From: Deinococcus radiodurans R1 = ATCC 13939 = DSM 20539
GTDB lineage: Bacteria > Deinococcota > Deinococci > Deinococcales > Deinococcaceae
Length of the DNA stretch: 32,000 nucleotides
Assembly (NCBI RefSeq): GCF_000008565.1
Contig: NC_001263.1
Coordinates: 1,973,533 to 2,005,532 of the forward strand
Direction of reading: 5' to 3'
Made by a program: the position numbers and the translations under genes. The notes beneath the pieces are model-generated. The model did not search any database. It saw nothing but the letters and a program-made list of their open reading frames with translations, and was not told the origin of the DNA. Shown one piece after another: positions 126-31,866 of this stretch; position 1 is the stretch's first letter, and each line of letters starts with the position of its first letter.

Positions 126-1259
126 TTACTGGGCGCTTCGGGGGAGGAAGATGCCGGACTTGAGGTTGTTCAACGGCACGTGGCTCACCCGCACGGCCAT
201 GGCATTGATCCGTCCGCCGGTGGGATAGGGACCGAGTTGGGCGGGGTCTGCCACGAACCGCAACTGCTCATGTGCCGTCTTGAATTGTATTTTCCCGTCC
301 TGGCCGACGGGAACGATGTCGGTGTCGTAGACCTCACCCGCCTTCTTGGTGAAGACCAGAACGACTTCGCCGGGTGGAAGGTCCGTCTGCGCCACACGAA
401 CGAGCGGGCCGGTTTCGCCACCGCTCAGGCTGTGGTTTTGCGGCTGCCCGTAGACCACGCTGCTCACCAATTCCAGCCCTAACCCCCGGTAAAAGGCCGG
501 GCCGATATTCTGATGACCCTCGCCAAACCTGAGTTTCAGGTCTCCCACCGTCAGCGTGGGCTGGGCGTAGCCGCTGAGTTGTGGGGCAGCGCCGCCCTTG
601 ACTGGCCTATTCATCAGGTCAGATGCCAAGCCTGAAGCCAGGAAATAGAGGTCGTTGCCCACGGTGAAAAAAGGCACCATACGAATACGCTCACCGCCTG
701 TCAGTGTTACCTGCCAGAGACTACCGGAAAGATGTTCGACGGTGCCCCCATGAGCAGAGACTGCTTTTTTCAGCGTGCTGAGGCTAATAAATGCGCCCTC
801 ATACGTCTTTTTGTCGTTGAAGGTATAGCAGGTCACACCGTTTTTCTCGCTCACAATGGTGATGTTGGAACCGCTCGGCTTGGTGCCGCGCACGCACGAT
901 GGTGTCACAGGCTGCGTCGTGCGAATGGGTAAGGTCAGGGGCGGGTTGCCACCGCCTGCCAAGGCGTACAGACCAGCGGTCACGGCGAGCGCGGCGATTC
1001 CACCTATAGAAATCAATTTCGGCATGTTATGCACTCCGTTCATTCCAGCACTCACGCGCAGGGGCGGGCCCAACTCGGCGAGTGCCTGGGCAAGAGCTTG
1101 TTCGGGGGCCGCGCCCCGCCACTCAAGCTGCTCGGCGCGGCAGTAGACGTGTTCTTCGAGTTCGTCCCAGACTTCCTGTCGCCTGCTCGCGGGCAGTCCG
1201 GCGGTGGCGCGGCGCAGGTACGTTTGCAGGGCGGGGGGCGGGGCGGTCACGGCGGTCAT
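126..1259 (-). CDS. PadR-linked membrane protein: DUF1700/HAAS-like N-terminal helix, one TM segment, ~270-aa extracytoplasmic domain of unknown family
   Basis: 377-aa ORF starting 6 nt after the PadR stop. The N-terminal YLRRATAGLPxxRRQEVWDELEEH motif is typical of proteins encoded after PadR regulators. A hydrophobic stretch LISIGGIAALAVTAGLYALAGG follows. The rest has ordinary amino-acid composition, unlike the R/A/G-rich overlapping ORFs. Confidence 0.7.
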   Translation of the reverse strand: MTAVTAPPPALQTYLRRATAGLPASRRQEVWDELEEHVYCRAEQLEWRGAAPEQALAQALAELGPPLRVSAGMNGVHNMPKLISIGGIAALAVTAGLYALAGGGNPPLTLPIRTTQPVTPSCVRGTKPSGSNITIVSEKNGVTCYTFNDKKTYEGAFISLSTLKKAVSAHGGTVEHLSGSLWQVTLTGGERIRMVPFFTVGNDLYFLASGLASDLMNRPVKGGAAPQLSGYAQPTLTVGDLKLRFGEGHQNIGPAFYRGLGLELVSSVVYGQPQNHSLSGGETGPLVRVAQTDLPPGEVVLVFTKKAGEVYDTDIVPVGQDGKIQFKTAHEQLRFVADPAQLGPYPTGGRINAMAVRVSHVPLNNLKSGIFLPRSAQ

Positions 1260-1264
1260 GGCCC

Positions 1265-1588
1265 TCAGCTCCCGGCGAGACGGTGCACGGCCCCGGTGAA
1301 GGTCTGAAACTCCTCGCGCTTCTGCGCCAGCCGTTGCCGGCCGAGGTCGGTAATCGCGTAGTACTTGCGCGGCTTGCCGTTGCGCCCGGCCTCGCCAAAC
1401 TGCGCGGCGAGCAGGCCGTCCACTTCCAGGCGGTGCAGCGCGGGATACAGGCTGCCTTCCTTGAACTCGAAGTACCCGTCCGTCCGGTCCTTGGCCTCCT
1501 GAATGATGGCGAAGCCGTAGAGGGGCCGCCGTTCCAGGATGCTCAGGAGAATCAGGTCGAGATTGCCGCGCAACAGGTCAGGGTTCAT
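1265..1588 (-). CDS. PadR-family transcriptional regulator
   Basis: MNPDLLRGNLDLILLSILERRPLYGFAIIQEAK...GSLYPALHRLEVDGLL is the classical PadR winged-helix signature. I start at ATG 1588 (GAGGAG 7 nt upstream) rather than the ORF-track maximum at 1645. Confidence 0.88.
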   Translation of the reverse strand: MNPDLLRGNLDLILLSILERRPLYGFAIIQEAKDRTDGYFEFKEGSLYPALHRLEVDGLLAAQFGEAGRNGKPRKYYAITDLGRQRLAQKREEFQTFTGAVHRLAGS

Positions 1589-1641
1589 GGTCACTCCTCT
1601 TCGGGCCTCGGCCACGCGGCGTCCCACGCGGTTGCGGCCCC

Positions 1642-1690
1642 ACATAGCTATGTCTGTCTACATAGTCTGCCTAAGTTATTCGAATGTCAA
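1642..1690 (-). promoter_or_regulatory. PadR operon promoter with overlapping palindromic operator
   Basis: On the minus strand a perfect TTGACA (1690-1685) is followed by a 17-bp spacer and GACTAT (1667-1662). Half-sites are ACATAG (1642-47), CTATGT (1648-53) and ACATAG (1660-65). This gives ACATAG|CTATGT and CTATGT-N6-ACATAG palindromes with the ATGT/ACAT core typical of PadR operators. Confidence 0.5.
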
Positions 1691-1761: not shown

Positions 1762-3324
1762 TTATTTCTGCACTGTCACCAAGTTGAGCGAGCCCACCGT
1801 ACTCAGCGGCCCGGTAATCCAGCCCTTGACGTAGGTGCGGGCGGCGGCGGGGGCGGTGCTGTGGACCAGCGGCAGCCGCACGTTGGCGTTGTAGGTCAGT
1901 TCGTGAAGCTGCTTGTAGTAAGGGGCTTTCTGGGCCTGGGTCAATGCGGCGCGGCCCTTGTTCAGCGTGTTCAGGATGTTGCCGGGGTTGAAGCCGATGT
2001 CGTCGCTGCCCTTGTCGCCGTAGAAGGCACTGTAGAAGTTGTCGGGGTCGTTGTAGTCGCCACCCCAGCCGTAGAGGTACATCTGAAAGACCCCGGCGCG
2101 GCGGTCTTCGAGGTACTTGGGCCAGTCCTCGGTCTTCAGGTTGACCTTGATGCCGATGGCGCCCAGGTCGGCGGCAATCGCTTCGGCCACCGGCTTGGGG
2201 GTGGGGAGGTAGTTGCGGCTGATCGACGGATACCACAGGTCGATGCTGAAGCCGTTCGGGTAGCCGGCTTCGGTCAGCAGCCGTTTGGCGACCTGGGCAT
2301 TGACCTTGACGGGCGGCACGTTCTTGCTGTTGGCCCAGGCCATGCTCGGCGGCAACATGCTGTTGTCCACGCTGCCCAGTTCACCCCAGAAGGCGTCCAC
2401 GATGGCGGGGCGGTTGACAGCGAAACGGATGGCCTCGCGCACCTTGGCGTTTTTCAGCGCGGGGTGCCGCACGTTCATGTTCAGCAGGCCCACATTGAAG
2501 GAGGTCGGCAGCACCAGGGTCAGGCGCTTGTCGGCCTTGATTTGGGCCGTCGCTTCGGGGTTGAGGTTGCTGGTGAAGTCCACCGTTCCGGCGCGGACTT
2601 CGTTGAGGCGCTGCGCCGGGTCTTTGATGAAGCGGAAGACGAGGCGGTCCAGGGTACTCCTGGTGCCCCAGTAGTTGGGGTTGGGGCGGAAGTTGAGGCG
2701 GTCACCGGCCTTCCAACTTTCCAGGATGAACGCACCCGTGCCCACCGCACTGCCCGCTGGCGTGCCGTATCTGGTGCCCTGTTTCTTGACGGCGGTCGGG
2801 CTGGCGATACCGAAATAGTAGCTGCCGATGAGTGCCGGAAACGCGGTCACGGGCTTGTTAAGCGTGAACACCACGGTGTCGCCCGACTTGCTCACCGAAC
2901 GCAGCAAACTGCCCGCCTCGCCCTTGTTGCCGCCGAGGAGTTGCGGCCAGACATCGAAGGTCGCGCCGTAGCGGTAGGCATTCTTCTTGTCCCACCAGCG
3001 GCTTACGTTAAAAATCACGGCGTCGGCGTTGAAGGGCGTGCCGTCGTGAAACTTGACGCCCTTACGCAGCGTGAAGGTCCAGACCGTCGCCGCCGCGTTG
3101 CTTTTCCAGCTCGTCGCCAGCGCGGGAACGAGTTCCGCCGTACCGGGCTTGAAATCAATCAGACGGTCATAAATCTGCGCGTCACCCTGCAAGCTGGGGC
3201 TGTCGCCGCCGTTGCCCGCGTTGAGGTTGACCGGTTCGCCGGGAGCGCCGTAGACAAGCGTGCCCGCAGCCCCCGCCTGAGAAAGCAGCGTCAATGTGAG
3301 CAACGTCAAAAAACCTTTTTGCAT
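1762..3324 (-). CDS. ABC transporter substrate-binding protein, family 5 (peptide/nickel/opine type), with signal peptide
   Basis: 520 aa. N-terminal signal MQKGFLTLLTLTLLSQAGAAG. Typical SBP_bac_5 segments are present (WTFTLRKGVKFHDGTPFNADAV, NPNYWG). AAGGAG lies 6 nt upstream of the ATG. No permease or ATPase genes are adjacent. Confidence 0.9.
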   Translation of the reverse strand: MQKGFLTLLTLTLLSQAGAAGTLVYGAPGEPVNLNAGNGGDSPSLQGDAQIYDRLIDFKPGTAELVPALATSWKSNAAATVWTFTLRKGVKFHDGTPFNADAVIFNVSRWWDKKNAYRYGATFDVWPQLLGGNKGEAGSLLRSVSKSGDTVVFTLNKPVTAFPALIGSYYFGIASPTAVKKQGTRYGTPAGSAVGTGAFILESWKAGDRLNFRPNPNYWGTRSTLDRLVFRFIKDPAQRLNEVRAGTVDFTSNLNPEATAQIKADKRLTLVLPTSFNVGLLNMNVRHPALKNAKVREAIRFAVNRPAIVDAFWGELGSVDNSMLPPSMAWANSKNVPPVKVNAQVAKRLLTEAGYPNGFSIDLWYPSISRNYLPTPKPVAEAIAADLGAIGIKVNLKTEDWPKYLEDRRAGVFQMYLYGWGGDYNDPDNFYSAFYGDKGSDDIGFNPGNILNTLNKGRAALTQAQKAPYYKQLHELTYNANVRLPLVHSTAPAAARTYVKGWITGPLSTVGSLNLVTVQK

Positions 3325-3374
3325 CTGAAACTCCTTACGCGGGGGAGATGCCGAACAGACCCCTGCATGATGGT

Positions 3375-3389
3375 TGATAAATTTTATCA
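3375..3389. promoter_or_regulatory. perfect 7-1-7 inverted repeat TGATAAA-T-TTTATCA (Fur-family box-like)
   Basis: Read directly from the sequence. It lies in the divergent region 51 nt upstream of the SBP start and 82 nt upstream of the 3471 gene. It differs from the Bacillus-type Fur 7-1-7 consensus TGATAAT-N-ATTATCA only at the innermost position of each arm. Confidence 0.45.
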
Positions 3390-3470
3390 GCTTTGAGAAA
3401 GAGCTCTAGAGTTTTCAGCCTGTTCCCGGCGCAGTGTCACGGCTACCCAGAGGGGTGACAAGCTGAGGGC

Positions 3471-4133
3471 ATGAAGTCCTGGATGCTGCGGGCGCCCGCT
3501 GACGTTCTCTCCCCTGCTGACGAGGCGGCTTGCCGGGCGGCGTTGAGGGGGAGAACGGCGGCGCAGGTACCCGCCACACTGCCGAAATGGGTCTTTTTGC
3601 GCTGGCTGACGGAACAGGGTTTTTTGCTGCATGGGTCGCCTGTTGGCGAACTCACGGAACTGCGCCCGGCAGAGAAGGCTTACCGGCAGCCCGACGAGTT
3701 CAGCAACACCATCGGCGTTTACGCCGCATCGGACGGCATTTGGGCCATGATGTACGCCCTCCGCAATCCGCAGACCACTCAGATGAGCGATATGGGCCTG
3801 CGCCTCCAGAAAAATGGGCAGTGGGGCGAAATGTGCTATTTCATGTCTCTGGCGCCGAGGCAAGGGCAAGTCAACAGGGTGGAAGAGTTGCTCGTGAGTG
3901 GCACGGTCTACGTCCTGAGCAGGGAGGGATTTCAAAATTCATCGCCTTACCACAATCCTGGCCTCGGCGAAGTTCAGGAAAGTCATTGGGTTTGCCCCAC
4001 TCCCGTCCGGCCCCTTTTCGCCGTGCCCGTGCAGGCCGCCGATTTTCCCCTGCCCGTGCGCCTGCATGACCGGGAGACGGTGGACGCCCGCTGTCAAGCG
4101 GACCCGTGGGGCTTTCCCTGGCTGGACCCTTAG
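3471..4133 (+). CDS. hypothetical protein; candidate divergent H-Y-E type ADP-ribosyltransferase (see findings)
   Basis: 220-aa ORF with balanced composition (W, Y, F, M, N, Q present), unlike the overlapping R/P/A-rich ORFs. TGaCAAGCT extended -10-like element ends 6 nt before the ATG. Motifs LLHGSP, GVYAASDGIWAMMYA and QESHWVC are present. Confidence 0.6.
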   Translation: MKSWMLRAPADVLSPADEAACRAALRGRTAAQVPATLPKWVFLRWLTEQGFLLHGSPVGELTELRPAEKAYRQPDEFSNTIGVYAASDGIWAMMYALRNPQTTQMSDMGLRLQKNGQWGEMCYFMSLAPRQGQVNRVEELLVSGTVYVLSREGFQNSSPYHNPGLGEVQESHWVCPTPVRPLFAVPVQAADFPLPVRLHDRETVDARCQADPWGFPWLDP

Positions 4134-4151
4134 AACACTTGCCAGAAAATG

Positions 4152-4206
4152 CCCCCCTCACCCCTGCCTTTGGCAGGCCCTCTCCCACTAGGGTAGAGGG
4201 TCGAAA
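4152..4206 (-). repeat. small non-coding intergenic repeat, copy 1 (double hairpin)
   Basis: The reverse complement TTTCGACCCTCTACCCTAGTGGGAGAGGGCCTGCCAAAGGCAGGGGTGAGGGGGG aligns over 55 nt with 7569-7623. Confidence 0.8.
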
Positions 4207-4240
4207 GGCGAAACATTCCCAGGCCGCGCTACCCTGCGGC

Positions 4241-4687
4241 ATGACCGCAGAGGCGACAGCTCCCGGCCCCAGGGCGCGGGCGTATCACGAGTACCTGGCC
4301 GCAGAGGGCTACCGCCCGCAGTTCGACGGCGACGGCGACGTGGAATTCAAGGCCGAAGGGTTTTACCTGTGCTGCTTTGCCAACGAGGACGACCCGCAGT
4401 ACCTCTACCTCGCCGCGCCCAATGTCTGGGCGCTGGAAGACGCCGGGGAGCGCACGCAGGCGCTCGACATCGCCATGCACCTGCAAATGCTTTACAAGGG
4501 CCTGAAAGTAGTCGTGCTGAGCGACACGGTGTGGATGAGCTACCAGGGCTTTCTGGAAGACGAAGCCGCCTTTCGCGGCGTGTTGGGCCGGGTCATCGAC
4601 CTGCTGCTCACGGGGGTGCGCGACTTTCACCGCCGGATGCGTGAGGAAACGCTTCCTGCCGAGGAACACAGCGGAGTGCAGGCGTGA
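4241..4687 (+). CDS. YbjN-like (type III secretion chaperone-like fold) domain protein
   Basis: Start moved to ATG 4241 (TACCCT hexamer ends 5 nt upstream). The upstream part of the ORF-track frame lies inside an intergenic repeat. YLAAEGYRPQFDGDGDVEFKAEGFYLCCFANEDDPQYLYLAAPNVW resembles YbjN-family proteins from memory. The stop overlaps the next start (GTGA). Confidence 0.55.
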   Translation: MTAEATAPGPRARAYHEYLAAEGYRPQFDGDGDVEFKAEGFYLCCFANEDDPQYLYLAAPNVWALEDAGERTQALDIAMHLQMLYKGLKVVVLSDTVWMSYQGFLEDEAAFRGVLGRVIDLLLTGVRDFHRRMREETLPAEEHSGVQA

Positions 4688-5685
4688 GCGCCGCGCCCGC
4701 CCCGGCCCTCATCGCCCTGCTGTCCCTGAGCGCCGCCGACGCGTTGGGGGCCGCCACCGAATTCAAGACGCCCGAGGCGATTCGCGCCCGCTACGGCGAG
4801 AGCATTTCGACCTATCAGCCCGGCAGCGTCTTCGGGTTCGCGCCCGGCGAGGCCACCGACGACAGCCAGATGGTGGCGGCGACCCTGCTCGGCTACCGAA
4901 AGGGCGACGGGCTACCGGGCGTTCTCGCGGGCCTGCGCGACTGGCTGTCCACCGCGCCGCCCGACGTGGGGGGGCTGACCCGCGCCGCGCTGCGCCTGGG
5001 CACCCTCGACGGCGGCGTGCGCGCCTGGGAACACAGCCGCTTCCAGAGCGCGGGCAACGGCGGCCTGATGAGAATCGCGGCGGTGTGGCTGCGCGGCTTT
5101 CAGGGCGAGGAATTGAACCGCGAAAGCGCCCTCGTGACCGCGCTGACCCACGCCGACCCGCGCTGCGTGTTCGCGTCGGTGTTTTTTACGGCGCTGCTGG
5201 GGCGGCTGGCGGCGGGTCAACCCTTCCAGGCCGCCGCTGAGGAGAGTCTGCAAGTGATGGACGCCTCCGACGCCCGCTCCGTGCTGCTTGATGCTGGATT
5301 GTTCGGCGTGGACACCCGCGCGGCTTTTGGCGCCTTCAAGGCCACCGAGCGTCAGGCCCGCGCCGACGTGCGCCGGGCAGCCCGCGCGGGCCTGAGCGGG
5401 CAGGTGAGGTCGCAGAGCGGCTACGTGCTGGACACCTTGCAGGCGGCGCTGGCACACGCACAGGCGGGCACCTGGCTGGGGTGCGTGGAGCCCGCTGTGC
5501 TGCTCGGCGACGATTCCGACACGGTGGCCTGCGTGGTCGGCGCGCTTTGCGGGGCACGGGGGCTGACCTCCCCCGAACTGGAGGTGCCGGAGCATCTGCT
5601 GCCGGAGCTGCGGCTGGGCCACTCCTGGCCGGGGTGGCAGCGGGATTGGGCCTGCACCGAGCATTTCCCCGAACTGCTGGCATGA
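4684..5685 (+). CDS. ADP-ribosylglycohydrolase family protein (DraG/ARH-like)
   Basis: 333 aa with the family hallmark motifs: SAADALGAATEF near the N-terminus, GEATDDSQM, and C-terminal GDDSDTVACVVGALCGA. GTG start overlaps the upstream stop and its own stop overlaps the next ATG. Confidence 0.85.
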   Translation: MSAAPAPALIALLSLSAADALGAATEFKTPEAIRARYGESISTYQPGSVFGFAPGEATDDSQMVAATLLGYRKGDGLPGVLAGLRDWLSTAPPDVGGLTRAALRLGTLDGGVRAWEHSRFQSAGNGGLMRIAAVWLRGFQGEELNRESALVTALTHADPRCVFASVFFTALLGRLAAGQPFQAAAEESLQVMDASDARSVLLDAGLFGVDTRAAFGAFKATERQARADVRRAARAGLSGQVRSQSGYVLDTLQAALAHAQAGTWLGCVEPAVLLGDDSDTVACVVGALCGARGLTSPELEVPEHLLPELRLGHSWPGWQRDWACTEHFPELLA

Positions 5686-6239
5686 CCGAAGAGGAGTTTC
5701 TGGCGCTGGTGCGGCACAACCCGGTCAACGCGGCCCTGCTGGACCGGCTGCCGCAACTCGCTGCCTTTGCGCCGGGAGCCCTGCTGGTGGCAGGCTCACT
5801 GTTCGGCACCGTCTGGAACGTGCAAAGTAGCAACGACCCGGCGGCGCACATCAAGGACTACGACCTCTTCTACTGGGACGCCGACCTCAGCTACGAGGCC
5901 GAGGACGCCGTGATTCGGCGGGCGGCGCTGCTTTTCGCCGACCTCAGTGCCCCCATCGAGCTTCGCAACCAGGCCCGCGTGCACCTGTGGTTCAATCCCA
6001 AGCACGGCCTGAACCGCCCGCCCATCCGGAGCGTGCAGGAAGGCATAGACCAGTTTCTCATCGAGTGCACCTGCCTGGGCATCGACGCGCAGGGGAATGT
6101 TTACGCGCCCTACGGCCTGGACGACATGGCGGCGGGCCTGCTGAAACGCAACGCCCTGAACCACTCGCCGGGGCTGTACGCCGCCAAAGCGGAGAGCTAC
6201 CGCGCCCGCTGGCCCTGGCTGCGAGATGTGCCTGTGTGA
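5682..6239 (+). CDS. nucleotidyltransferase family protein (Pol-beta-fold NTase, NTP_transf_6/DUF925-like)
   Basis: Start at ATG 5682 (ATGA overlap with the ARH stop). AGSLFGTVWN...IKDYDLFYWD fits the hG[GS]-x(9-13)-DhD NTase signature. The longer ORF-track N-terminus is R/A/G-rich and overlaps the ARH gene. Confidence 0.7.
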   Translation: MTEEEFLALVRHNPVNAALLDRLPQLAAFAPGALLVAGSLFGTVWNVQSSNDPAAHIKDYDLFYWDADLSYEAEDAVIRRAALLFADLSAPIELRNQARVHLWFNPKHGLNRPPIRSVQEGIDQFLIECTCLGIDAQGNVYAPYGLDDMAAGLLKRNALNHSPGLYAAKAESYRARWPWLRDVPV

Positions 6240-6301
6240 TGCAGCGGCGTGATACCGGGCAAGTGTCGCCCGGTGAACAGCGAAATGGAGGACGGCCCCG
6301 T

Positions 6302-6307
6302 TAAACT
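6302..6307 (+). promoter_or_regulatory. -10 hexamer TAAACT, 6 nt before the thiolase ATG (leaderless-type)
   Basis: TAnnnT hexamer. No Shine-Dalgarno lies between it and the ATG. Confidence 0.4.
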
Positions 6308-6313
6308 CTAGGT

Positions 6314-7513
6314 ATGTCTGAAAAAATTGTCATCGTGGCGGCCAAGCGCACGCCCATCGGCAGCTTCATGGGAAGCCTGAAAGACGTGTCGGCGGTCGAC
6401 CTCGGCGTCACGGCGGCGGGCGCAGTCCTGAGCGGCGTGAGCGACGAAGTGAAGGCCGACATTGCCGACGTCATCGTGGGCTGCGTGCTCCAGGCGGGCC
6501 AGGGCATGAACGTGGCGCGGCAGGTGGGGCGCGGCGCCGGGCTGCCCGACGCGGTGCCGGGACAGACCATCAACCGCATGTGCGGCAGTGGTTTGCAGTC
6601 GGTGGTGAGCGCCATTCAGGGCCTCAAGTCCGGCGACGGCCAGATTTACCTCGCGGGCGGCACCGAGTCCATGAGCCGCGCGCCCTACCTGCTCCCCAAG
6701 GCCCGTGAAGGCTACCGGCTGGGGCACGGCGAGATTCTCGACACCATCCTGACCGACGGCCTGACCGACGTGTTCCACAACTACCACATGGGCACGACCG
6801 CCGAGAACCTCGCCGAGAAATACGGCATTTCCCGTGAGGACCAGGACGCCTTCGCGCTCGAATCACAAAAGCGCGCCGCCGCCGCCATCGAAGGCGGATA
6901 CTTCGGCGACGAAGTGGTGCCGGTGGAAGTCCCGACCCGCAAGGGCCCGGTGACCTTCGACAAGGACGAGCACCCCCGCGCCACGTCGCTCGAAGCGCTC
7001 GCCAAGCTGCGGCCCGCCTTCAAGAAGGACGGCGGCACCGTCACGGCAGGCAACGCCAGCGGCATCAACGACGGCGCGGCGATGGTGCTCGTCACCACCG
7101 AGAGCTACGCGCAGGAACGCGGGCTGCCTATCCTGGCCGAGGTGAAGGGCTACTCGAACGTGGGCGTGGACCCGGCCATCATGGGTATCGGCCCGGCCTA
7201 CGCGGTGCCGCTGGCGGTCAAGCGGGCGGGGCTGTCGATGAGCGACGTGGACCTCTTCGAACTCAACGAAGCCTTCGCCGCGCAGAGCCTCGCCGTGCTG
7301 CGCGACCTGGGGCAGCAGGGGGCCGAGGTGGACCCCGCCCACGTCAACCTGACCGGCGGCGCGATTGCGCTGGGCCACCCCATCGGCGCGTCGGGTGCCC
7401 GCGTGCTGACCACGCTGATTCACCAGTTGCGCCGCACCGGCAAGGAAACCGGCGTGGCGAGCCTGTGCATCGGCGGCGGCATGGGGATTGCGCTGGTGTT
7501 GCAGGCCCGCTGA
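6314..7513 (+). CDS. acetyl-CoA C-acetyltransferase (thiolase II)
   Basis: 399 aa. Active-site Cys context [10 protein letters not shown]-terminal [17 protein letters not shown] and CIGGGMGIA motifs. TAAACT hexamer ends 6 nt before the ATG. Confidence 0.95.
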
Positions 7514-8461: not shown

Positions 8462-8974
8462 ATGGACGAACTGAATAAAACCACGGCCACCGGCACCGTG
8501 ACCACCAACACCGACGCCGGAGCCGACAGCGCCCGCGACGTGCATCAGCCGATGTACACGACCACGCCGCTCGAAAGCCGCGTGAGTAGCTCCGACGAGG
8601 GCCTGGGCAGCGCCGTGTCGCCCGACATGCCTGATCCCGCCGCTGTCACCGAGCAATTTGACCAGCTCGCCACCCGCGACCCCGAAGCGATGGAGCACCG
8701 TCTCCAGACCCCGGAATTCGCTGGGGCCGAGACGACGGCGGGCCTCGTTGACGGCGCAGCGGGCAGCGTGCTCGGCGCCAACGACCTCGCCTTGATGACC
8801 ACCGCCGACGGACTTTCGGGCACCGCCGTGGGCCGTGAAGTCGGCCTGAACCGCGACCCCAACGCGGGCTACACCGCCCCCGCCCTCAGCGGCCCGCCCC
8901 ACGTCAGCGAGCAGCCTGGCGACCTGCCCCCCGGCGAATCCGAGGAGCTCAAGTCGCAGATCGAAAACCGCTGA
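8462..8974 (+). CDS. hypothetical acidic, T/A/G/D/P-rich, probably disordered protein
   Basis: 170-aa ORF. CACAAT hexamer ends 6 nt before the ATG and a strong hairpin terminator follows the stop. No recognisable domain. Confidence 0.5.
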   Translation: MDELNKTTATGTVTTNTDAGADSARDVHQPMYTTTPLESRVSSSDEGLGSAVSPDMPDPAAVTEQFDQLATRDPEAMEHRLQTPEFAGAETTAGLVDGAAGSVLGANDLALMTTADGLSGTAVGREVGLNRDPNAGYTAPALSGPPHVSEQPGDLPPGESEELKSQIENR

Positions 8975-17218: not shown

Positions 17219-17303
17219 TTCGGTGCTCCTTACGGTGGCTGCCTCGGCGGGGCCACTGGGTGCGGCAAATGGGTAAGTCATGCGGAACTAGAATTCGCCG
17301 CGC

Positions 17304-17332
17304 ATTCTGCCACAGCCCCGCAACGCTGACAA
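17304..17332 (-). promoter_or_regulatory. candidate gre-family gene promoter TTGTCA-17 bp-CAGAAT, bracketed by a 7-bp inverted repeat
   Basis: Minus-strand hexamers at 17332-17327 and 17309-17304. GCGCATT (17300-06) and AATGCGC (17331-37) embrace both hexamers. Confidence 0.35.
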
Positions 17333-17413
17333 TGCGCTGGAAAGACAGGAGCAGGGCCGGAAGACGCGCTGAAGCCCTCGCCAGCCCCGGCCCGCTTGCT
17401 ACCCTGCCTCCCG

Positions 17414-18598
17414 ATGTCTGTCGCCGAGCCTGCCCCCGCGCCGCTTTCCTCACCACCGCTGGCCCCGCCGCCCCAGCCCCTCACCTTTGCCGTGGTCGGT
17501 GCCGGCGCCGTGGCTTTTTTGTGTCTGGGAGTGTTGCAGGCAATTTATGGCCCGGCGTTTCCTGCCTTCGAGGAGCGCTTCGGGGTGGTGACGGCGCGGG
17601 TCGGCCTGATTGCCAGTGCCCACTTCATCGGGTCGGCGGCGGCGCCTCCGCTCGCGGGACTGCTGCTCGCGCGGCTGGGCGTGGGGCGGGTGGTCGGCGG
17701 GGCCTTTACGCTGCTTGCCGCCGGGGCGCTGTTGGTCGCTGCCGCCCCAACCTGGCCGCTTGCACTGCTGGGCGCGCTGCTCGGCGGACTGGGCCTGGGT
17801 GGAGTCTCGGGGGCACTGAATGCCGCCTACGCGGGCGTCGGCACCCGCGCCATCAATTTCGTCAATGCGCTGTTCGGGGTGGGCAGCATGCTCGCACCGC
17901 TACTCCTCGCACTCACCGCGCGGCAGGCGGGGTCTCCAGGAGGTGGACTGCCGCTCGCGTTCGTGACGATTGCCGTGCTGGCGGGCTTGAGCCTGCTCGC
18001 CGCCCGGCTGTGGGGGCTGCCCCGGCTGTTGCAGGACACCGGCACGGAAAGCAGTCAGGCCCGCCGCAGCACCCTGGCGCTGTTTGCTGGTTTGCTGCTG
18101 CTGTACGTGGGCGTCGAAGTCGGGTCGGGCGCCTGGGCGGCCAATTACCTCGGCGCGGTGGGGCACGCCAGCCCGGCGCTGGTGGTGAGTGCCTACTGGG
18201 GCGGCCTGACCGTTTCGCGGGTGCTCACCAGTCTGTTTGCCAGCCACGTCGCGCCGGGGCGGCTGGTGCTGGGGGCGGCGCTGCTCGCGGCGGTCGGGTC
18301 AGCGCTCACGGCGCTGCCCGCGCTCGCGCCCTTCGCTTATGTCCTGGTCGGCGTCGCCTGCGGGCCTATCTTTCCTACCACGCTCGCCTGGGCGGCCCGG
18401 CGCATTCCGGCGCGGCTCGTCGCCTCGCTGCTGGTCAGCGGCAGCGTGGGCGGCGTCCTGATGCCCTGGCTGCTGGGGTTGGGCTTCACCGGGGCGGGAA
18501 GCTGGGCGGTGCCCGCGCTGCTCACGGGGGCGGCGGCGCTGCTCGCGGTGCTCGTCGCGCTTACGCTGCGGCGGGTGGGGCCGGGGCTGGAAGGCTGA
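17414..18598 (+). CDS. MFS transporter
   Basis: About 12 hydrophobic segments and glycine-rich loops typical of the major facilitator superfamily. The 470-aa ORF in another frame of the same strand is R/A/G-rich. ATG 17414 preferred over TTG 17396. Confidence 0.8.
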
Positions 18599-18664
18599 GC
18601 AGCCGGGACTCGGCAACTCCCCCGCCCCCTTCCCCCCCTGGCCCACTTTCCCCTCCCGGAGCCG

Positions 18665-18671
18665 TGCGATA

Positions 18672-18673
<2 letters not shown>
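18665..18673 (+). promoter_or_regulatory. extended -10 TGcGATAAT in front of clpP
   Basis: It ends 7 nt before ATG 18681 and overlaps ATG 18672. Confidence 0.45.
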
Positions 18674-29100: not shown

Positions 29101-30066
29101 ATGCGGGGTATGGCTGAGCAAGCAGAACATCCCTCCCGCATCCTCGTGACCGGCGCGAGCGGCTTCGTGGGCCGCGCCACCCTAGCCGAACTCACCCGGC
29201 GCGGCTACGAGGTCGTCGCAGGCTCACGGCAGGGCAAGGGCGTGGGCCGGGGCATCGGCATCAAGCTGGACGTGACGAGTGAAAAAAGCGTGCGGCAGGC
29301 GCTTCAGGACGTGCAGCCCGCCGCCGTCATTCATCTGGTGGGCATCATCGCCGAGAAAGGCAAGCAGACCTTCGAGCGTGTGCATATCGAGGGCACCCGG
29401 CATGTGCTGGACGCCCTCCGCGACTATGACGCTGCCCGGCAACAGGCCCACAAGGGCGACGAGATGGAGCGCCCCCACCCCACCCGCTACCTGCACATGA
29501 GCGCGCTCGGCGCCGATGTCCTGAGCCCCAGCGCCTACTCGTGGAGCAAGGGCGAGGCCGAGGGGCTGGTGCGCCTCAGCGGGCTGCCCTGGACCATCTT
29601 CCGCCCCAGCCTGATTTTCGGCGTGGGCGACGACTTTTTCGGGCGGGTGCTGAAAAATCTGGTGTCGGCGGCCCCGGTGGTTCCCCAAATCGGAGACGGG
29701 CAATTCCCTTTCCGCCCCATCAGCGTGGAGGACGTGGCGCTGGCCTTTGCGGAGGCGCTGGTCAAGCCGGAAACGGTTGGACAGATTTATGCGCTCACCG
29801 GCCCGCAGGAGTTCACCTTCAAGGAGTTGCTGGCGCTGGAGCAGCAGGCGCTCGGTCAGCAAAAAAAGGTGGTGCCGGTGCCCCAGAAGCTGATGGACCT
29901 CGCCGTCCCGGTCATCAGCCGCCTGCCCGCCGCGCCCATCACCCGCGACCAGTACGCGATGCTCAAGGCCGGCAACACCGCACCGAACGACGCCGCCCGC
30001 GCCGCCTTCAACCTGCCGCTGCACCGCTTGCAGGACCGGCTGCCGTACATCGTGGACCGGAAATAA
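29101..30066 (+). CDS. NAD(P)-binding atypical SDR (NDUFA9 / NmrA-like epimerase-dehydratase fold)
   Basis: [30 protein letters not shown] Rossmann motif and RPSLIFG. The in-frame ATG at 29110 is the probable start (GACAAT ends 7 nt upstream). Confidence 0.85.
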
Positions 30067-30077
30067 CCCCGCAGCAA

Positions 30078-30117
30078 ACACCGCCCGGAACATTCGCGTC
30101 CGGGCGGTGTTTCTTTC
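30078..30117. terminator. bidirectional terminator between the convergent SDR and HD-domain genes
   Basis: Perfect 12-bp stem ACACCGCCCGGA/TCCGGGCGGTGT, flanked by AAA on the left and TTCTTTC on the right. Confidence 0.85.
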
Positions 30118-30119
30118 GG

Positions 30120-30674
30120 CTATTCCAGCTCGTCGTAATGGTGCAGCAGCGCCGCTTCCGGGTCCCCCACCGAGGCGTGGTGCCGGGCCACGAGTTGCGC
30201 GACGCGAGGCCGGGCACCCGCGTAGGCGAGCAACTCGGCCCCCAGTTCAGGGTGTGCCGCCCGGATGCCCAGCGCCCCGGCAGGCGGCAGCAGAATGCTC
30301 AGGCGGTGGGGAATCAGGCCGACCAGCACGCGTTCGGCGACATGGTAGGGGCGCACGCTTTTGCCGCAGTCGTGCAGCAGCGAGGCGGCGATCAGCTCGG
30401 GGCTGGCGAGGGGATGATCGCCCAGCAGGTGCCGGGTCACGCGGCAAGCGTGTTCACGGTCACGCGGGTCCATGCTGCGGTACACCAGCCGCTCGCCGGG
30501 GTTGAGAAACTGCTCGGCCCAGCGGTCGTCGGGGTGGGCGGCGTCGGCCCGCAAGCTGCGCGACAGCCGCCGGACCTTGCCCACGTACCCCCCCAGCTTG
30601 CGCCGCAGCCGGTCAGGAAGAGAAAGCCGCAACATGACCGTCATCGTACCGCCTGCCGCCGAGCGCGCCCGCAA
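30120..30674 (-). CDS. HD-domain phosphohydrolase family protein
   Basis: H...LLHDCGK...RHH motifs. The start is uncertain: TTG 30674 is the ORF maximum, with in-frame ATGs at 30644 and 30635. Confidence 0.7.
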   Translation of the reverse strand: MRARSAAGGTMTVMLRLSLPDRLRRKLGGYVGKVRRLSRSLRADAAHPDDRWAEQFLNPGERLVYRSMDPRDREHACRVTRHLLGDHPLASPELIAASLLHDCGKSVRPYHVAERVLVGLIPHRLSILLPPAGALGIRAAHPELGAELLAYAGARPRVAQLVARHHASVGDPEAALLHHYDELE

Positions 30675-30714
30675 GGCTCACCGGAAGCTCAAGATGGTAG
30701 ACAGATCAAGCAGA

Positions 30715-30750
30715 CAAAGAAACCGGAGCGCCACGGTCACGCAGCGCTCC
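30715..30750 (-). terminator. trxB terminator
   Basis: On the minus strand GGAGCGC-12 nt-GCGCTCC is followed by GGTTTCTTTG, 27 nt after the trxB stop. Confidence 0.65.
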
Positions 30751-30776
30751 ATTCGAGTCAAACAACTCAAGACAGT

Positions 30777-31754
<978 letters not shown>

Positions 31755-31837
31755 GCGTCTCAGGGTAGCACCGGGAGGGAGACACAAAAGCGATTTCCAG
31801 TTTATTTTTTAAAGCAAGAAGTGCGACGAAAGACAAT

Positions 31838-31866
31838 AAAAAAGAGAGAAGCTGCGTGAGCTTCTC
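31838..31866 (-). terminator. tRNA-Gln terminator
   Basis: On the minus strand GAGAAGC-7 nt loop-GCTTCTC is followed by TTTTTTATT, starting about 9 nt after the CCA end. Confidence 0.7.

Follow-up and report, generated by a model that had tools for sequence, protein, structure and literature searches.

Which enzyme attaches ADP-ribose in Deinococcus radiodurans? The bacterium has a characterised PARG and makes poly(ADP-ribose) that is detected by antibody, dependent on nicotinamide adenine dinucleotide (NAD+) and sensitive to 3-aminobenzamide, and its genome has no PARP homologue and no transferase identified as responsible (PMC6445106; PMC8120803). The question attaches to a gene at positions 3471–4133 of a 32,000-nucleotide (nt) stretch of the D. 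radiodurans R1 genome (NC_001263.1, 1,973,533 to 2,005,532, forward strand; "the window" denotes this whole stretch), in whose product a first-pass annotation, made by a model from the letters alone, had seen the NAD site of a PARP/diphtheria-toxin-type ADP-ribosyltransferase (ART), with special relevance should the DNA come from Deinococcus. The source, D. radiodurans R1, with its reported PARG and no identified writer, bears that relevance out (PMC6445106; PMC8120803). On its predicted structure and conserved residues, the protein is probably a member of an Arr-like family, hitherto undescribed, in the H-Y-[E/D/Q] clade of ARTs, with an activity, a target and a coupling to a nearby glycohydrolase that we infer. 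The open reading frame (ORF) is:

3471–4133, plus strand: ORF of 220 amino acids (aa), D. radiodurans AAF11515.1 (ORF call and translation)

Its existence and translation agreed with the first-pass reading, and an exact-sequence look-up identified the product as the D. radiodurans R1 hypothetical protein AAF11515.1. GC content at third codon positions (GC3) was 0.74 versus 0.47 and 0.60 in two overlapping frames, which marks this frame as the coding one, and it was below the 0.82–0.90 of the neighbour genes; the interval 3001–4000 likewise had a GC content of 0.59 versus 0.64–0.70 in its neighbours. The reduced GC and GC3 could reflect a different history, e.g., horizontal transfer, or low expression. 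The protein had been called unannotatable, and the description holds because AAF11515.1 had no match in Pfam, NCBIfam, PHROGs or PDB chain sequences; the sole PADLOC match was to Cas3 and at chance level (E 0.008, 13.6 bits). The single-protein search and two family-profile searches against Pfam, NCBIfam, PADLOC, PHROGs and PDB sequences returned nothing informative, and no paper on this gene or family was found in the literature.

Predicted fold and conserved residues

An AlphaFold2 model of AAF11515.1, built with 43 homologues, had a mean predicted local distance difference test score (pLDDT) of 92.5 and a predicted template-modelling score (pTM) of 0.90, and a second model, of a Paenibacillus homologue 29% identical to AAF11515.1, reached 94.6 and 0.91 with its secondary-structure elements in the same order. 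In both, two N-terminal helices lead to a buried strand (52–56) carrying H-G-S, which is followed by a strand (82–86) with residue 84, a helix (89–96) with W91 and residue 95, a long hairpin (102–129) with Y123 and a strand (144–149) with Y147. Short strands come after these, one (166–170) ending at E170 and, past a break at 171, another (172–175) starting at H172, and the chain closes with a strand (183–187) and a C-terminal helix. Foldseek comparison of the models with 350,542 PDB chains (template-modelling score, TM, on target length) gave the following ART matches:

AAF11515.1 model, rank 1: Arr (9iaf), probability 0.60, E 0.16, TM 0.43
AAF11515.1 model, rank 4: Arr (2hw2), probability 0.25, E 0.70, TM 0.41
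AAF11515.1 model, rank 5: PARP1 (8u4w_D), probability 0.06, E 0.74, TM 0.20
AAF11515.1 model, rank 9: PARP4 (8swy_B), probability 0.10, E 1.2, TM 0.23
AAF11515.1 model, rank 16: Arr-2 (9iba), probability 0.16, E 1.6, TM 0.42
Paenibacillus model, rank 1: Arr (9iaf), probability 0.84, E 0.065, TM 0.47
Paenibacillus model, rank 2: Arr (2hw2), probability 0.38, E 0.20, TM 0.40

All non-ART matches of both models had probabilities of 0.1 or less. The ART reading is favoured because Arr came top for two independent models, with PARP1 and PARP4 also matched and nothing of another fold above that level. The closest solved structure is Arr, an H-Y-D enzyme, and the first-pass assignment to the PARP/diphtheria-toxin type has to give way on this point. 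In a library of viral structures, uncharacterised proteins came out on top, and PolyVal ARTs and PARP domains were among the weak matches.

The second line of evidence is the conservation of residues, counted in one alignment of 191 non-identical family members and given in AAF11515.1 numbering. The segments concerned are:

3630–3638, plus strand: H54-G55-S56, proposed NAD-site motif on core strand 52–56 (conservation and model)
3720–3755, plus strand: Y84 to Y95, strand 82–86 and helix 89–96, proposed nicotinamide-stacking aromatics (conservation and model)
3837–3848, plus strand: Y123-F-M-S126 in an inserted beta-hairpin, alternative candidate catalytic Tyr (conservation and hhalign)
3978–3989, plus strand: E170-S-H172-W173, third-site region where strands 166–170 and 172–175 meet (conservation and model)

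H54 and G55 were present in all 191 members and position 56 was Ser or Thr in 186, with H54, G55 and S56 all invariant in the 43 Deinococcus-type homologues. The same H-G-[ST] tripeptide was found when the PARP1 and Arr sequences were checked, and diphtheria toxin has it as well. Further along the chain, position 84 was aromatic in 187 members (137 Tyr, 50 Phe) and position 95 in 190 (129 Phe, 61 Tyr), and between them D88 (183) and W91 (186) were nearly constant. At the third site, E170 was kept by 46 members and limited to the Deinococcus clade (invariant in its 43 homologues), and the constrained position was instead 172, where Gln (104), His (51, and so in AAF11515.1) and Glu (35) account for all but a single Arg. 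A third position limited to Glu or Gln, here also His, resembles the variability for which the H-Y-[E/D/Q] clade is named. Conservation was also high at Y123 (189), S126 (178), G144 (191), Y147 (189), F154 (190), D191 (186), F192 (187), P193 (190), H199 (173) and D200 (166).

Of the four residues that the first-pass annotation had placed at the NAD site, H54 is invariant among orthologues as expected, whereas Y84 and Y95 give way to Phe in many members and E170 is a feature of one clade. E170 is conserved within Deinococcus and not family-wide, and it is probably not at the canonical catalytic position. The proposed H-Y-E signature finds partial support in its invariant H-G, its aromatic strand and helix and its constrained strand-start position, but its canonical third residue is His in AAF11515.1. 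The PARP1 strings quoted for comparison were exact when checked, and so were the spacings, i.e., 30 residues from His to Tyr versus 34 in PARP1, 11 from Tyr to Tyr in both, and 86 versus 92 from Tyr to Glu. A composite motif (H-G-[ST], a Tyr 26–37 residues later after a hydrophobic residue, a Tyr at +11 and, 65–94 residues later, a Glu heading a hydrophobic stretch) occurred in 2.5e-5 of 200,000 shuffles of AAF11515.1, a figure that is only indicative since the pattern was set after the sequence had been seen. Routine chance would clearly not account for the H...Y...Y...E pattern.

Profile comparison brought in Arr by a different route. The Arr-2 and Arr-ms sequences were taken from the PDB, and the Arr alignment comprised 24 sequences, a shallow set in which all were at least 58% identical. 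When the family alignment was compared with these by hhalign, the best local match was always between G-x-V-Y-V-L-x-x-x-G-F of the family and G-Y-I-Y-I-V-E-P-T-G-P-F of Arr, and greedy extension from it produced five motifs collinear with Arr, listed here in the order family, then Arr:

Motif 1: H-G-S; H-G-T
Motif 2: Y123-F-x-S; Y-F-S
Motif 3: the G-x-V-Y-V-L strand, shared
Motif 4: P-V-R-P-L; P-L-R-I-V
Motif 5: D-F...H-D and helix; D-W.G-H-P and helix

In this extended alignment residues 58–97 form an insertion, and the catalytic Tyr of Arr (Y49) pairs with Y123 and not with Y84. On topology, we consider Y84 the more likely equivalent, because its distance of 30 residues from H54 equals that of Arr H19 to Y49, because a helix follows its strand as one unit, and because it sits in a motif of the form G-h-Y-x-[AST]. 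That form occurs in diphtheria toxin, exotoxin A and PARP1.

Several of these results weigh against the ART assignment. The family has no sequence-level match to any ART family; hhalign comparison of three versions of the family alignment with Arr-2 alone or with the 24-sequence alignment was not significant (P 0.014–0.18); and the top Foldseek scores lie below normal confidence (E 0.065–0.16, TM below 0.5, root-mean-square deviation, rmsd, 8–10 Å). Two candidate equivalents of the catalytic Tyr, Y84 and Y123, compete, and AAF11515.1 and its closest relatives lack the Arg residues that most members keep near 67, 80 and 100. With those Arg absent and His at the third position, AAF11515.1 could be a weak or altered enzyme. 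The first-pass expectation of an ART match by structure or profile was thus borne out in the identity of the top PDB match for both models, but not in the strength of the scores or in the profile comparison.

From the same shortfalls it might be argued that the protein is no ART at all, i.e., that it has a different or new fold, whether as an enzyme or as a binding protein, and that its likeness to Arr and its H...Y...Y...E pattern are coincidental. Structural matches with E above 0.06, TM under 0.5 and an rmsd of 8–10 Å would suit that explanation, as would non-significant Arr profiles, an E170 kept in one clade with Gln or His at the canonical position of most members, and invariant polar residues (Y123, Y147, D191, H199-D200) that lie outside any ART signature. 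We nevertheless consider it unlikely: among 350,542 chains Arr was top for two independent models, PARP1 and PARP4 followed and non-ART probabilities stayed at or below 0.1, the invariant H-G-[ST] ends a buried strand with an aromatic strand and helix 30 residues on, as in Arr, and the third position is restricted to Glu, Gln or His.

On the ART reading, a course of catalysis can be proposed. The cleft that binds NAD+ would be made by H54-G55-S56, which lie on the first core strand, with the aromatics at 84 (next strand) and 94/95 (following helix) stacking on the nicotinamide. The residue at position 172 (Glu, Gln or His), at the start of its strand, would stabilise an oxocarbenium-like transition state, assisted in Deinococcus by E170 two residues upstream, and a single ADP-ribose would be passed to an acceptor. 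The acceptor site is probably made up of the N-terminal helices, the Y123 hairpin, Y147, D191-F-P, H199-D200 and the DPWGFPW tail. If this is true, the H-Y-[E/D/Q] clade gains a variant that has Glu, Gln or His by turns as its third residue.

A large family in soil bacteria

The family comprises at least 731 clusters at 50% identity: a profile search of 1.84 billion representatives returned 731 proteins at E ≤ 1e-3, of which 360 reached E ≤ 1e-10. A word-indexed search found 123 homologues of AAF11515.1, with all organism-named matches in Deinococcus (41–82% identity), and a metagenome scan added 449 relatives, mostly on contigs with soil or rhizosphere names; Paenibacillus and Fimbriimonadaceae members came from a further search and the metagenome scan. 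A scan of viral contigs gave no relatives. The family is large, has no Pfam entry and occurs widely among soil bacteria, and even as ordinary mono-ARTs its members would make up a large unrecognised family that Pfam lacks.

Distant members are fused to DUF3471 (at either end), to an N-terminal TehB-type S-adenosylmethionine methyltransferase, to a peptidoglycan-binding domain or to HEAT repeats (fused members include our proteins P0240, P0196, P0185 and P0230), and at one locus (L039; L numbers denote loci of our comparison) a methyltransferase gene overlaps the start of a family member by 4 nt.

Existing labels were of little help. Two public sources call some homologues "RES domain-containing", after another domain of the ART superfamily, a label that was not reproduced: 43 + 43 members had no RES match in Pfam (E ≤ 1 and E ≤ 0.1), and the R-E-S residues of PF08808 are not those found here, the first strand carrying His and not Arg. 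The Pfam scan gave no Arr match in AAF11515.1 or 85 relatives either. DUF6886 (PF21820) was weakly matched by 7 of 43 distant members (best E 1.8e-4), through the H-G-S...P-R segment only (profile positions 1–39 of 164) and at 13–17 bits versus a gathering cut-off of 27, with AAF11515.1 itself unmatched; the link to this uncharacterised domain is uninformative on function.

The copies vary in number and state. D. frigens has tandem paralogues (L007, 4327–4986 and 5001–5648) 15 nt apart, one from each of two Deinococcus subgroups (the "SKR...VF" and "SNT...VY" types), and the Deinococcus metagenome-assembled genome (MAG) OZ244654 carries two unlinked copies (L008, L022). Two other copies (L025, 5001–5655; L030, 5001–5602) each gave two overlapping tblastn segments that differ in frame, and for that reason they are probably frameshifted pseudogenes; downstream of the L030 copy a glycohydrolase gene is still present. 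Deinococcus-type members 47–51% identical to AAF11515.1 also lie on contigs labelled Tabrizicola, an alphaproteobacterium (L021, 4696–5349; L026, 497–967), which suggests horizontal transfer or contaminated assemblies.

The gene cluster in Deinococcus

What, then, is the partner of this protein, if it has one? The ORF lies in the following setting:

126–1259, minus strand: HAAS-domain membrane protein gene (Pfam)
1265–1645, minus strand: PadR-family regulator (Pfam), recurrent with the HAAS gene upstream of ORF homologues
1762–3324, minus strand: family-5 solute-binding-protein gene, between the PadR-HAAS pair and the ORF
3325–3470, no strand: presumed promoter region, a relatively AT-rich spacer of 146 base pairs that separates the ORF from the divergent solute-binding-protein gene
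4238–4687, plus strand: YbjN/TY-Chap1-like ORF of 149 aa (Pfam TY-Chap1, E 0.0012, 18.9 bits against a cut-off of 27; GC3 0.82)
4684–5685, plus strand: DraG-like ADP-ribosylglycohydrolase (Pfam PF03747, E 8e-44)
5679–6239, plus strand: NTP_transf_6 nucleotidyltransferase (Pfam PF06042, E 3e-35; PDB 2LA3, 2.5e-9)

On the plus strand the ORF is followed, after a gap of 104 nt, by the TY-Chap1-like ORF, the glycohydrolase and the nucleotidyltransferase, the stop of the second overlapping the start of the third by 4 nt and the third overlapping the fourth by 7 nt. No plus-strand terminator-like site was found within 3200–6400, and the spacer 3325–3470 had no match to the sigma-70 consensus. The closest solved structures to the glycohydrolase are DraG (6e-14), Lmo0067 and Tri1, and by inspection it keeps the motifs A-D-A-L-G, T-D-D-S and D-D-S-D-T, which we take to be the metal-binding motifs of its family. 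The first-pass placement of the gene directly upstream of the glycohydrolase was wrong for D. radiodurans, because the 149-aa ORF intervenes; in other Deinococcus species the two genes do lie side by side. The match of that ORF to TY-Chap1, a family of YbjN/type III secretion system-chaperone-like proteins, is sub-threshold; it has no PDB sequence relative, and since tblastn found no counterpart in the 32 other loci searched, it would seem to be an insertion into the block that is peculiar to D. radiodurans. The solute-binding-protein gene is likewise inserted, here between the PadR-HAAS pair and the ORF.

By tblastn, about 10 of 28 Deinococcus-type genome loci have the glycohydrolase after the ORF: D. 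wulumuqiensis, D. rhizophilus, D. antarcticus, D. petrolearius, D. phoenicis, D. xinjiangensis, D. oregonensis, D. aquatilis, one Deinococcota MAG and D. radiodurans. The nucleotidyltransferase came after the glycohydrolase in 9 of 10, and in the D. wulumuqiensis gene calls the ORF, glycohydrolase and nucleotidyltransferase overlap in turn, the first two by 4 nt. Across these loci the glycohydrolases are 66–82% identical and the ORFs have diverged to 40–53% (82% in D. wulumuqiensis). The block has at least two kinds of flank, one with PadR-HAAS upstream and the thiolase downstream, the other with genes for a family-3 solute-binding protein and a thioredoxin-fold protein on the upstream side and, downstream, one for an N-terminally PPK-like protein; the three genes therefore seem to move or persist as a unit, kept as they are among differing flanks. 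PadR and/or HAAS genes were found upstream by tblastn at L001/L002, L004, L008, L009, L010, L011 and L029.

This arrangement leads to the reading that we prefer, tentatively and at somewhat less than an even chance: a new Arr-like ART family which in Deinococcus takes part in a reversible mono-ADP-ribosylation module coupled to the glycohydrolase. In D. radiodurans the ORF heads a co-oriented, terminator-less cluster with the TY-Chap1-like ORF, the glycohydrolase and the nucleotidyltransferase, and in the glycohydrolase-bearing Deinococcus loci (about a third) the glycohydrolase would strip what the ORF protein adds. Reversible modification in Deinococcus would fit the recurrent block with its DraG-like glycohydrolase, and an Arr-like small-molecule enzyme would fit the stand-alone distribution.

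Several results weigh against the coupling. The glycohydrolase is absent beside 18 of the 28 Deinococcus-type loci, several of them at the same PadR-linked position, neither it nor the nucleotidyltransferase neighbours any of the 85 loci outside the Deinococcus-type group, and the material between ORF and glycohydrolase differs, as in D. rhizophilus and in D. xinjiangensis (L019), the latter with an opposite-strand ORF there. The writer–eraser neighbourhood proposed in the first-pass annotation thus stands for about a third of the Deinococcus-type loci and for none of those elsewhere. Neighbour families at the non-Deinococcus loci reach at most 6 of 85, those that recur being Ogt, a GidA/TrmFO-type flavoprotein, a short-chain dehydrogenase, RibD_C and similar. 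Other annotated loci have GNAT, metallo-beta-lactamase-fold, DinB, class A beta-lactamase and methyltransferase genes as neighbours. In D. koreensis (L004, 1442–5675) the homologue lies 18 nt after a gene for an 882-aa protein with PPDK_N, Rph_4th and PEP-utilizer domains, i.e., one resembling rifampin phosphotransferase, with a TetR gene before it.

These data also bear on another explanation, that an ART-fold enzyme works alone in the ADP-ribosylation of small molecules (antibiotics or xenobiotics) or in NAD+ hydrolysis and has the glycohydrolase as an unrelated neighbour. The TY-Chap1-like ORF, glycohydrolase and nucleotidyltransferase would then form a separate module, for which one candidate is a class of glycohydrolase-centred systems with TY-Chap chaperones whose predicted role is to reverse ADP-ribosylation by phage (Iyer, Burroughs, Aravind and co-workers 2022; PMC9503650). 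We rate this as somewhat unlikely. The gene stands alone almost everywhere, with 0 of 85 non-Deinococcus loci having either partner; its neighbours and fusions (GNAT, metallo-beta-lactamase fold, DinB, class A beta-lactamase, methyltransferase, DUF3471, Ogt) have a flavour of detoxification; the D. koreensis gene follows TetR and the rifampin-phosphotransferase-like gene by 18 nt; the best structural match, Arr, is a small-molecule ART; and TY-Chap1 was defined in glycohydrolase-centred systems without an ART (PMC9503650). Yet the three-gene block is kept in about 10 Deinococcus-type loci despite ORF identities of 40–53% and differing flanks, the ORF and glycohydrolase overlap by 4 nt in the D. 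wulumuqiensis gene calls, the Rph-like neighbour occurs in one species, the TY-Chap1 match is below the Pfam cut-off and unique to D. radiodurans, and no Nudix, WYL regulator or phosphatase was found among the scanned ORFs.

The Rph-like neighbour is notable in its own right, the best structural match of the family being the rifampin-inactivating Arr. A link to rifamycin resistance through that neighbour was considered and set aside, as it was seen in D. koreensis and at no other locus.

A pairing of ORF and glycohydrolase as toxin and immunity protein or toxin and antitoxin, in the manner of Tre1/Tri1 or DarT/DarG, is brought to mind by an ART-like gene in one cluster, and on one strand, with a DraG/Tri1-like glycohydrolase. 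Against this, 18 of 28 Deinococcus-type and 85 of 85 other loci have no glycohydrolase nearby, no sign of secretion or of a polymorphic toxin was seen, PADLOC gave no defence model above chance, no relative was found on the viral contigs scanned, and frameshifted copies and tandem duplicates occur without changes in the partner. The protein must be tolerated without an antidote, since most members have no nearby glycohydrolase, and we regard such a pair as extremely improbable. An obligate toxin-immunity pair of the Tre1/Tri1 type is excluded by a glycohydrolase found in about 10 of 28 Deinococcus-type and 0 of 85 other loci.

There remains the question with which we began. AAF11515.1, with its likely ART fold and H-G-S motif and a DraG-like glycohydrolase in the same cluster, is a concrete candidate gene for the D. 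radiodurans writer. In its strongest form the proposal would be that AAF11515.1 is the missing, divergent, 3-aminobenzamide-sensitive writer, which places mono- or oligo-ADP-ribose on proteins or nucleic acids for removal by the adjacent glycohydrolase and/or the D. radiodurans PARG, in connection with the DNA-damage response. An H-Y-x type fold with an intact H-G-S site, together with the published absence of a PARP homologue, makes the proposal compatible with the data, but nothing in this analysis supports polymer formation or a link to PARG, and we think it very unlikely.

Other features of these loci are recorded here for completeness. At three of them (L017, 4545–4997; L020, 4498–4977; L023, 4507–4986) a gene of 150–159 aa with a weak match to AhpC/TSA (thioredoxin fold) lies 4–24 nt upstream of the homologue on the same strand, and the cluster in those species may comprise four genes. 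Ogt (O6-methylguanine-DNA methyltransferase) is encoded 9–59 nt upstream, on the same strand, at five soil-metagenome loci (L061, L063, L064, L099, L111), which may come from related organisms. The rest of the window encodes ClpX, Lon, MutS2 and two type IV pilus ATPases, and its downstream thiolase was identified by exact-sequence look-up as AAF11511.1. Three further ORFs, all on the plus strand, had no Pfam match (17260–18672, 470 aa; 29541–31859, 772 aa; 8462–8974, 170 aa), and the 470- and 772-aa ORFs may be non-coding shadow frames of a high-GC genome.

Comparison with known ADP-ribosylation systems

The pairing of writer and eraser invites comparison with DraT/DraG and Tre1/Tri1, in both of which an ART-like gene is clustered with an ADP-ribosylglycohydrolase of the DraG/Tri1 kind, as here. 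DraT and Tre1 belong to the R-S-E clade and not to H-Y-E, for which reason the first-pass parallels with them are analogies and not relationships. In AAF11515.1 the motif is H-G-S and not Arg-based and there is no NCBIfam or Pfam match, and its pairing with the glycohydrolase is optional, with an extra ORF between the two genes in D. radiodurans.

A second comparison is with the ADP-ribosylglycohydrolase (ARG)-centric TY-Chap systems, in which, as in D. radiodurans, the glycohydrolase is translationally coupled to a TY-Chap1/YbjN-like ORF (PMC9503650). Those systems were defined as lacking a linked ART and usually contain Nudix or WYL regulators and phosphatases (PMC9503650), whereas the D. 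radiodurans cluster has a linked candidate ART and an NTP_transf_6 gene in place of such partners, and none of the window ORFs scanned with Pfam encoded a Nudix, a WYL regulator or a phosphatase.

With PARP and diphtheria toxin AAF11515.1 shares the order and spacing of its H, Y, Y and E (30/11/86 versus 34/11/92 in PARP1) and a Glu-type residue directly before a hydrophobic strand, and PARP1 and PARP4 were both in the top 10 PDB matches of the AAF11515.1 model. There are also differences from PARP: TM was only 0.20–0.25, there was no match to the PARP Pfam family (PF00644), the helical regulatory, WGR and DNA-binding domains are absent, and in place of the canonical Glu D. radiodurans has His and most members have Gln. 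PARP-family members without the catalytic Glu are known as mono-transferases. With Gln or His at that position in most members, mono-ADP-ribosylation or NAD+ hydrolysis would therefore be likelier than the synthesis of polymer.

It is Arr (PF12120; 2HW2, 9IAF, 9IBA) that the family most resembles, with differences of its own. AAF11515.1 is about 70–80 residues larger (220 versus about 140–150), its extra parts being the N-terminal helices (1–50), the hairpin 102–129 with Y123 and the C-terminal H-D...DPWGFPW tail; the Arr triad is H19/Y49/D84, of which D84 has no clear equivalent, and the third site of the family is Glu, Gln or His at the start of a strand, as in PARP and diphtheria toxin, and not the Asp of Arr. 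The likenesses are an H-G-[ST] on the first strand, a Tyr 30 residues past the His and then a Trp-bearing helix, the G-x-h-Y/F-h-h strand, the P-h-R-h-h strand, the D-[WF]...G-H-[PD] motif and the C-terminal helix, all in the same order, and, as for Arr, a gene that stands alone in environmental bacteria. If the enzyme is Arr-like, the family may form a so far unrecognised class of ARTs that act on small molecules or antibiotics.

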